This document shows positions 37,801 through 38,159 of a stretch of DNA of 64,000 nucleotides, one piece after another. How positions within the stretch are numbered: position 1 is the first letter of the stretch; every line of letters begins with the position of its first letter. Below the pieces are notes generated by a model, which saw nothing but the letters and a program-made list of their open reading frames with translations, made no database searches and was not told the DNA's origin. Source of the DNA: Candidatus Poribacteria bacterium (lineage in GTDB: Bacteria; Poribacteria; WGA-4E; PCPOR2b); the NCBI GenBank assembly GCA_965116925.1, contig OZ220744.1:5184001-5248000 (forward strand), read 5' to 3'. The position numbers were made by a program, and so were the translations under genes.

Positions 37801-37829
37801 TTGATTTCTGAAGTTTTTCGTGATATAAC
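37801..37829 (+). promoter_or_regulatory. sigma70-type promoter
   Basis: TTGATT-17 nt-TATAAC with a TGn extended -10. Confidence 0.6.
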
Positions 37830-37834
37830 TAAAA

Positions 37835-37919
37835 TGTCTTTCTTGTGGGAGAGTTCGGCACCGTCGCCAGACGGTGTCTCCCACATCCTACCGAACAGGA
37901 TATGAAAGAAGGAAGGACA
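37835..37919 (+). ncRNA. candidate structured RNA (three-way junction with 6-bp pseudoknot)
   Basis: P1 37835-44/37910-19; P2 37845-52/37877-84; P3 37859-65/37870-76; P4 37885-89/37897-901; bulge GUUCGG is complementary to loop CCGAAC; starts at the expected TSS. Confidence 0.65.
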
Positions 37920-38159
37920 ATCCCACGTATATTAACGCAAGTTGTTACCTAAAGAACTTACGGACTCGCAAGTTCCGAGCGACTTTGTATTCTATTGATC
38001 AGGGCTGCTGGGTTGTAATTGCTATATGCTGTTGCCCCGTTGGGGCTTTAAGGTTTGCTAGGTAAATCTGACGATTTACATACGCTCACCTTGAGGGATA
38101 GGTGTATTCGTTTTTCTATACATCTGTCGCGCTAAGGATTTTGAGAAAAGGAGCGAGTC

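Follow-up and report, generated by a model that had tools for sequence, protein, structure and literature searches.

The window analysed here is a 64,000-nt stretch of a Candidatus Poribacteria genome (G000:C1:5184001-5248000; G000 denotes this genome throughout), and its positions 37801-37930 hold an orphan copy of a structured RNA together with its promoter (Table 1). Upstream lies a decayed left end (LE) of an insertion sequence, whose neighbour is a vWA gene ending at 37531. The ~200-bp repeat that interrupts this LE is missing from the orthologous locus L014, parts of it recur at up to 11 further genomic places, and contig X2, from another strain, carries a different 96-nt insert at the same site. 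Neither a tnpB body nor a right end is left at the locus. Of the repeats found instead, 37920-54 has weak matches in its own genome and in other genera, and 38011-38060 matches up to four other places. Two tandem pairs of paralogues follow in the window, one of N-terminally anchored proteins (38160-38846 and 40042-40719, the first without a Pfam match) and one of ~530-aa proteins with a C-terminal thioredoxin-like domain (40955-42526 and 42595-44229).

Table 1 Features of the orphan RNA copy and its surroundings, in window positions
Feature	Position	Strand	Remarks
Decayed LE of IS200/IS605 element	37549..37587	+	Usual LE hairpin broken; by-eye comparison with intact LEs of loci L015, L021 and L018 and with orthologue L014
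Multicopy repeat, ~200 bp	37588..37786		Inserted in LE; flanked by ATTGG at 37583-87 and 37787-91 (5-bp duplication)
Sigma-70-type promoter	37801-37806 (-35 TTGATT); 37821-22 (extended -10 TG); 37824-37829 (-10 TATAAC)	+	17-nt spacer
Predicted +1	~37834-37836	+	Expected from promoter layout
P1 5' strand	37835..37844	+	Sits at predicted transcript start
P1	37835-44/37910-19	+	10 bp, 2 GU
P2	37845-52/37877-84	+	8 bp
Pseudoknot bulge	37853-58	+	GUUCGG, 6 nt
P3	37859-65/37870-76	+	7 bp, loop GCCA
P4	37885-89/37897-901 (hairpin 37885..37901)	+	Loop 37891-96 pairs with bulge to form the pseudoknot
Proximal P1 partner	37904..37910	+	GAAAGAA; family version GAAAGAC; weakened here by A37910
Distal P1 partner	37910..37919	+	Contains incidental AGGAAGG (37910-16)
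Dead TnpB start	37925..37930	+	ACG TAT; MYTTKK clade
Short dispersed repeats	37928..38060		Take the place of the tnpB body; compose a spurious 46-codon frame
Terminator-like hairpin	38087..38114	+	Consensus match only; present, with changes, in L014

A first-pass annotation, made from the letters of the window, had described an uncharacterised pseudoknotted RNA directly behind a promoter. Reading and folding the sequence recovered every element where that annotation had placed it: promoter, P1-P4, the bulge-loop pseudoknot, AGGAAGG and the ACG at 37925. The nested fold is both the minimum-free-energy and the centroid structure (-39 kcal/mol, z -4.12; 0 of 200 shuffles were as stable), and the P4 loop ACCGAAC contains CCGAAC, the exact complement of the bulge. 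The RNA also proved uncharacterised, with no Rfam family matching the window or homologous loci: Rfam 15 gave no hit in the window at the gathering threshold (one match of E 3.9 lies beside the fold), two matches off the leader in 13 homologous loci (E 0.23-0.37) and none in 11 further loci. At L030:221-421, near the expected 3' end of the element, there is a sub-threshold match (E 0.23) to the IS1341 3'-end RNA sot0042.

The ACG-TAT of the window copy corresponds to the ATG-TAT or GTG-TAT start of the MYTTKK clade of TnpB proteins, which bears out the earlier suggestion of a decayed start codon; in orthologue L014 and contigs X2 and X6 the ACG reads GCG. The 46-codon frame that was thought to open there is not a gene; it comprises two TnpB codons followed by repeats. 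A promoter scanner called no site in 37500-38200 and missed the window promoter because its -10 box ends in C, without the final T. This base is T in L014 and in the RNA-library contigs X1 and X2, and, judged from sequence, the change may have weakened the promoter of the window copy. Small shares were found in 10 RNA runs; of the four examined, contigs X1, X2 and X6 (three studies) span the fold and X8 does not; contigs carry neither strand nor start and so do not establish transcription of this copy. Contig X6 ends at 38080, near the terminator-like hairpin, which may end an orphan transcript of ~270 nt, and X2 continues into other sequence. Between the orphan and L014 the fold differs at 1 of 85 sites and the flanks at 21 of 259 (p 0.02, from one comparison with borders picked after inspection), a weak hint that the orphan may still be in use, perhaps as a small RNA; the 5' RNA of IS200 is reportedly a precedent for a 5' leader acting in this way. 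The window copy itself is the remnant of a decayed element, without a gene to gate.

To place this copy in a family, we used BLAST, which turned up several copies of the fold in each of 17 of the genus's 19 genomes, and two covariance models, R1 built from 20 BLAST-found copies and R2 from 44 more diverse sequences. R1 matched 55 and R2 120 of the 151 genomes of the phylum, with at most 27 candidates scored per genome for R2. By family, R2 matched 24/25 genomes in f1, 89/100 in f4, 5/10 in f2 and 1/2 in f5, with 0/4 in f3 and 0/5 in f8; 34 R2 places lie in G000. Many weak BLAST matches reflect a downstream repeat rather than the fold and were not counted. A sequence-free descriptor scan was too loose (22 and 16 two-partner matches on the two strands against 18 in the reversed control) and served solely as a lead for one mini-element, 5407785, which was then checked separately. 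An exact pattern scan of GTDB genome contigs returned 89 stretches, and the 80 among the matches listed are all from Poribacteria. The same scan of viral contigs gave 0 matches, blastn against plasmids and phages gave none, R2 on 12 TnpB loci, the nearest ones from outside Poribacteria and from viruses, gave nothing at E below 0.3, and related-locus scans with two TnpB clades returned nothing. Within this search, which is of limited sensitivity and applied the model to those 12 outside loci only, the leader was not found outside the phylum. We found no published description of it, including in the main texts of PMC5737381 and two 2026 ncRNA-mining preprints; the family is uncatalogued, and its hosts are sponge-symbiont Poribacteria.

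The conserved architecture, as covariation among homologous sequences shows, is a three-way junction that P1 closes and that contains a bulge-loop pseudoknot of 6-7 bp. In an alignment of 44 homologues (A2), which was fitted to the nested structure and not to the pseudoknot, 94.9% of 1025 cells are paired, and 23 of the 24 pairs show double-sided changes. These include all six pseudoknot pairs, so that the pseudoknot proposed from the window alone is backed by covariation. None of 500 shuffles reached any of these measures, and slid controls paired at 38-55%; the leader copies are related, so such counts overstate independence. P2 and P3 are 100% paired in the 44 homologues, with double-sided changes in 14 of their 15 pairs. 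A separate parser found the same elements in 77 of 82 candidates, leaving five unparsed; L057 was mis-parsed, and L072 was excluded from the unique-core and Pistol counts. Among 63 unique cores, P3 has 7 bp in 58, the bulge 6-7 nt in 60 and the pseudoknot 6-7 bp in 53, realised by 42 different pseudoknot sequences. Near-invariance is confined to paired positions (the P2-base G-C in 44/44 and the P3-base C-G in 42/44), and the 63 cores contain no invariant unpaired nucleotide, their loops and pseudoknot varying freely. On the plus strand, G-U pairs outnumber A-C combinations by 41 to 3, a bias that is partly parser-built and cannot tell RNA from top-strand DNA.

The genes behind the leaders reveal what it accompanies. 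In G000, a TnpB start follows within ~30 nt after 26 of the 34 copies (21 full-length, 5 truncated), the others being one mini-element, six stand-alone copies and the window copy. Pfam confirms TnpB (OrfB_IS605 plus Cas12f1-like TNB) in all three clades tested. Conversely, the leader is present at 21 of 26 TnpB zinc-ribbon matches in G000. One of the five matches without it is deleted just after the -10 box, and another has a repeat in the leader's place. The other three (G000:C1:4092021, 5978433 and 1036508) form a tnpB subfamily without recognisable internal promoter or leader, in which the ATG comes soon after the LE hairpin. From this joint loss in tnpB copies without a leader we conclude that promoter and leader travel together, and the leader does not seem to be required for element spread. 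The usual order is LE hairpin, TTGA-type -35, 17 nt, TG-extended -10, leader and start codon. From the -10 box to P2 there are 12-15 nt in 50 of 52 tnpB leaders, and because this spacing is fixed, the predicted +1 falls at P1; from P4 to the start codon there are 20-28 nt. In homologues and mini-elements inspected by eye, subterminal hairpins lie at both ends with no tnpA inside, and the Y1 transposase matches (five in G000) lie elsewhere. Taken together, the window RNA is almost certainly, as far as sequence can tell, an orphan copy of a conserved ~90-nt 5' leader that opens the tnpB/omegaRNA transcript of TnpB-only IS200/IS605 (IS1341-like) elements in Ca. Poribacteria. The earlier description as an uncharacterised RNA stands, but the RNA leads TnpB insertion sequences and is not the regulator of a local gene.

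Leader sequence follows the host rather than the protein. For 40 full-length TnpBs in six clusters, leaders within a host family are 0.62 identical across clusters (25% protein identity), whereas leaders within one TnpB cluster are only 0.44 identical across host families; the host-family label needs four changes on the TnpB protein tree. The left-end module therefore appears to have passed between the TnpB lineages of a host lineage, or to have been homogenised across them, although a host factor common to them would produce this pattern too.

According to the first-pass annotation, the RNA sequesters a Shine-Dalgarno (SD)-like sequence, a principle that does not extend to the family. Using the anti-SD from the end of the genome's own 16S, pairing of -4 kcal/mol or better occurs at only 3 of 52 tnpB starts (near-duplicates included; median -0.4), compared with 64% of 1844 long genome ORFs. 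The AGGAAGG of the window scores -8.1 yet differs from the family consensus: A37910 is C in L014, X1, X2 and X6, G37916 is A in X2, and in family f4 the distal partner reads, for example, ACUUGAU or GUGUGAU. What these sequences conserve is pairing and the distance to the start, not an SD. With no strong SD in the helix, we rejected a leader of the SD-sequestering type known from IS200 tnpA.

A second feature became visible in the family. The 5' strand of P1 has two complementary copies 3' of P4 in 62 of 71 non-redundant members (in the other nine, the second partner falls below the cut-off), whereas 135 of 3344 swapped and 69 of 1420 shuffled pairs (4-5%) show the same. All three strands co-vary, as in GUCUUUC/GAAAGAC, AUCAGG/CCUGAU, UCACAC/GUGUGA, AUCCGU/ACGGAU and UCCUUCC/GGAAGGA. 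The spacer between the partners is mostly 0-1 nt but reaches ~20 nt, at times as a hairpin, and one copy has three partners. In constrained folding that ignores the pseudoknot, the energy gap between the two registers has a median of -0.3 kcal/mol and lies within 3 kcal/mol in 48 of 67 copies. Two co-changing, nearly isoenergetic partners point to a two-register switch, and a helix strand that co-evolves with two tandem partners is an unusual arrangement, newly described here. A purine triplex was ruled out, the partners being direct repeats of mixed sequence. By the same folding, the window copy prefers the distal register by 5.4 kcal/mol, and the registers are balanced (0.7) in L014, where position 37910 is C. 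It is because of this bias that a single P1 had been seen at first; its distal pairing holds, while the second, upstream partner at 37904-10 and the transposon setting had been missed.

The two partners are also kept where there is no start codon to gate, namely in stand-alone copies and in four mini-elements (G000:C1:5588986, 4280329, 2585550 and 5407785). These mini-elements, of ~330-400 bp, consist of LE, promoter, leader, an omegaRNA-like tnpB 3' end and the right end, and their leaders are fully compensated with new sequence. Because the tandem partners persist in ORF-less copies, translation gating is not their sole reason. A further mini-element with both ends (L192, G000:C1:3969047-3969640) has a divergent leader, seen by eye and missed by both models, and ~250 nt unmatched elsewhere in the genome.

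In three G000 copies, a -24/-12 motif of the sigma-54 type has its -12 box ~15 nt before P1; the genome encodes RpoN by a canonical gene at G000:123832. A repeated unit of ~250 bp, composed of an inverted repeat, a sigma-54-type promoter and the leader, occurs at G000:C1 positions 322142-322290 (L216), 338602-338737 (L217) and 3117400-3117540 (L218). A fourth copy, at 319825, has a sigma-70-type promoter and lies upstream of a PAS/sigma-54 activator gene, and two of the sigma-54 copies precede exported Ig-like proteins. These copies are possibly a domesticated regulon. The genes after stand-alone copies (UvrD, the PAS/sigma-54 activator, Ig-like exported proteins) share no common pathway. Low-copy conserved leaders without tnpB occur in other families as well (L065-L070 and L099), most of them preceded by an additional 5' hairpin and a motif of the sigma-54 type; among the f2 loci, L065, L067, L069, L070 and L099 have this motif ~60 nt upstream, with the additional hairpin in between. 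Within the window, 61788-63128 encodes a divergent second protein, 446 aa long, in which Pfam recognises a Sigma54 DNA-binding domain (E 1e-23).

How might such a leader work? We give an even chance to a model in which it both shields the message and limits synthesis of the TnpB nuclease. The leader core would fold during transcription, with the 5' end held in P1. The SD-less start codon of tnpB elements lies ~4-9 nt beyond the end of the distal partner, and distal pairing would block the 30S footprint (OFF); by branch migration, P1 would shift to the proximal partner and free ~13-17 nt (ON) while the 5' end stays paired. A strong promoter could then yield a stable omegaRNA precursor in abundance at a low output of nuclease. 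The register might be moved by thermal equilibrium or by the ribosome, making a small-molecule trigger unnecessary, and in ORF-less and domesticated copies the 5'-protecting role alone would remain. Three parts of this model are inferred: occupancy of both registers, a block to initiation by the distal one, and protection of the 5' end by P1 against RNase J or RNase E; RNase J and RNase E/G are encoded in the genome. Against this model, the leader could, without an SD, equally aid initiation, and the tandem partners persist where no start codon follows.

The latter observation would suit a simpler role, unlikely on balance, in which the leader is purely a 5'-end stabiliser or a processing signal of the omegaRNA precursor, with the tandem partner held in reserve as a second helix against helicases or nucleases and without translation control. 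Retention with new compensatory sequence in four mini-elements, where the leader is fused to the tnpB 3' end and right end, retention before unrelated genes, its place at the predicted +1 under two promoter types and the presence of RNase J all agree with it. TnpB also processes its mRNA into omegaRNA by trimming it from the 5' side (PMC10278001). However, the narrow distance from distal partner to start across six TnpB clusters is hard to explain without a link to initiation, and a single hairpin would be enough to protect a 5' end.

If, instead, a host protein, TnpB or a metabolite bound the junction and set the register, the leader would be a riboswitch-like or autoregulatory sensor, which we regard as improbable. 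Two balanced states, strictly kept lengths of P3 and bulge, and a leader identity that tracks host family and not TnpB clade would all be expected of a sensor, but its unpaired nucleotides, loops and pseudoknot are free to vary, it is common to TnpBs of only 25% identity, the genes behind stand-alone copies share no pathway, and shuffling of the whole left-end module accounts for the host signal equally well. Measured against metabolite riboswitches, the leader has an alternative pairing that overlaps the initiation region and lacks invariant loop or junction nucleotides. An elaborated version, to which we assign a small chance, has a new class of sensor RNA on a non-catalytic, permuted Pistol-like scaffold: a host signal, protein or metabolite, would shift P1 between its partners and so set TnpB output. 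In each host family the module would have moved between unrelated TnpB lineages, and copies placed behind sigma-54 promoters would have been domesticated for the control of host genes.

We also think it quite improbable that the pseudoknot recruits S1 or the 30S subunit for SD-independent initiation, as in the 5' pseudoknots of tisB and timP. Although tnpB starts lack an SD in an SD-using genome and the distance from fold to AUG is fixed, the leader is retained in ORF-less copies, and three leaderless tnpB copies have spread with an ATG close behind the LE. For timP, a pseudoknot is required and the switch is purely structural (PMC13000454).

Self-cleavage, another early suggestion, would make the leader a circularly permuted relative of the Pistol ribozyme, and this we consider very improbable. 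The pseudoknot joins a hairpin loop to the P2/P3 junction with the topology of Pistol, AAA lies no more than 10 nt after P4 in 49 of 63 cores, and a G-U step, though paired, is found at the P3/P2 junction in 45. The features of cleavage are missing: the nucleotide after the pseudoknot strand is C in 58/63 and GCG begins there in 0/63, 59/63 have no unpaired cleavage-side nucleotide, CUGANGA, the conserved hammerhead core, is absent from 63/63, and no Rfam ribozyme matches. Judged by these sequence features, the leader fails the tests for both Pistol and hammerhead; we rejected membership in Pistol for want of the catalytic G40/G42 and the length-conserved unpaired G-U junction in the 63 cores. 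That the fold acts as single-stranded DNA in TnpA peel-and-paste transposition is hardly credible, for although it sits within the element end on the coding strand and strand-biased G-T pairs would fit top-strand DNA as well, the LE has a hairpin of its own further upstream, the fold is missing from three dispersed elements, and it keeps to the +1 of both promoter types and persists in copies that have no LE. An omegaRNA identity was discarded on position, the leader starting at the predicted +1 and preceding an ORF, with a separate 3'-end region homologous to tnpB ends in the mini-elements; HDV-like, twister, ZTP, THF, SRP Alu, xrRNA and HK022 put RNAs were set aside on topology.

The TnpB nuclease has to be kept in check while enough guide RNA is made, and the printed controls of TnpB that we found are the Arc repressor, a protein, and an inhibitory region within the mRNA. 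If the shield-and-limit model is true, the leader adds an RNA-level 5' control of TnpB. The value lies in the family more than in the window copy: hundreds of natural variants constitute a ready compensatory-mutation map, and the leader might find use as a 5' stabiliser or attenuator that is compact and flexible in sequence. New in this analysis are the double partner, the absence of an SD, host-tracking, the mini-elements and the sigma-54 copies.

Several known systems invite comparison. Gene-less, PATE-like mini-elements and sot RNAs are said to be gene-less and non-coding RNA forms of TnpB elements, and the 5' pseudoknot and alternative pairings of the tisB toxin mRNA leader reportedly control its translation. 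OmegaRNA (PMC10278001) and the gene-less elements that keep it (PMC10055086) are likewise non-coding RNA of TnpB elements; omegaRNA and sot RNAs lie at the tnpB 3' end, whereas the leader lies at the 5' start, with no upstream room for a guide, and the mini-elements found here carry both. Pistol (PMC6154101 and PMC8495972) shares a 6-bp pseudoknot from hairpin loop to P2/P3 junction and an A-rich linker after the hairpin, but the leader has a permuted order and an extra closing P1 and lacks G40/C41/G42 and the unpaired cleavage junction. At the level of DNA, the intergenic promoters of IS605 are strong and held down by Arc, according to 10.64898/2026.09.24.754181, whose main text gave no match for UTR, leader or RNA structure; Arc is a protein acting on DNA and the leader an RNA, yet both would curb strong IS605 promoters. 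Closest in working are two other RNAs. In the IS200 tnpA leader with art200, a structured left-end 5' leader likewise limits translation of an element protein, its 5'UTR stem giving 50-fold repression (Ellis et al. 2015, PMC4513863). There, one long hairpin hides a near-perfect SD behind a weak promoter, whereas the Poribacteria leader precedes tnpB, has a three-way junction with a pseudoknot and two P1 partners, lacks an SD and follows a near-consensus promoter. In timP (PMC13000454), how much of a harmful protein is translated depends on a 5' pseudoknot and on alternative pairings, which switch without processing; timP and tisB free a sequestered SD, are countered by an antitoxin RNA and show no sequence relation to the leader in Rfam scans. 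By analogy, then, the leader would resemble the IS200 tnpA leader and the timP switch in its working while belonging to neither.
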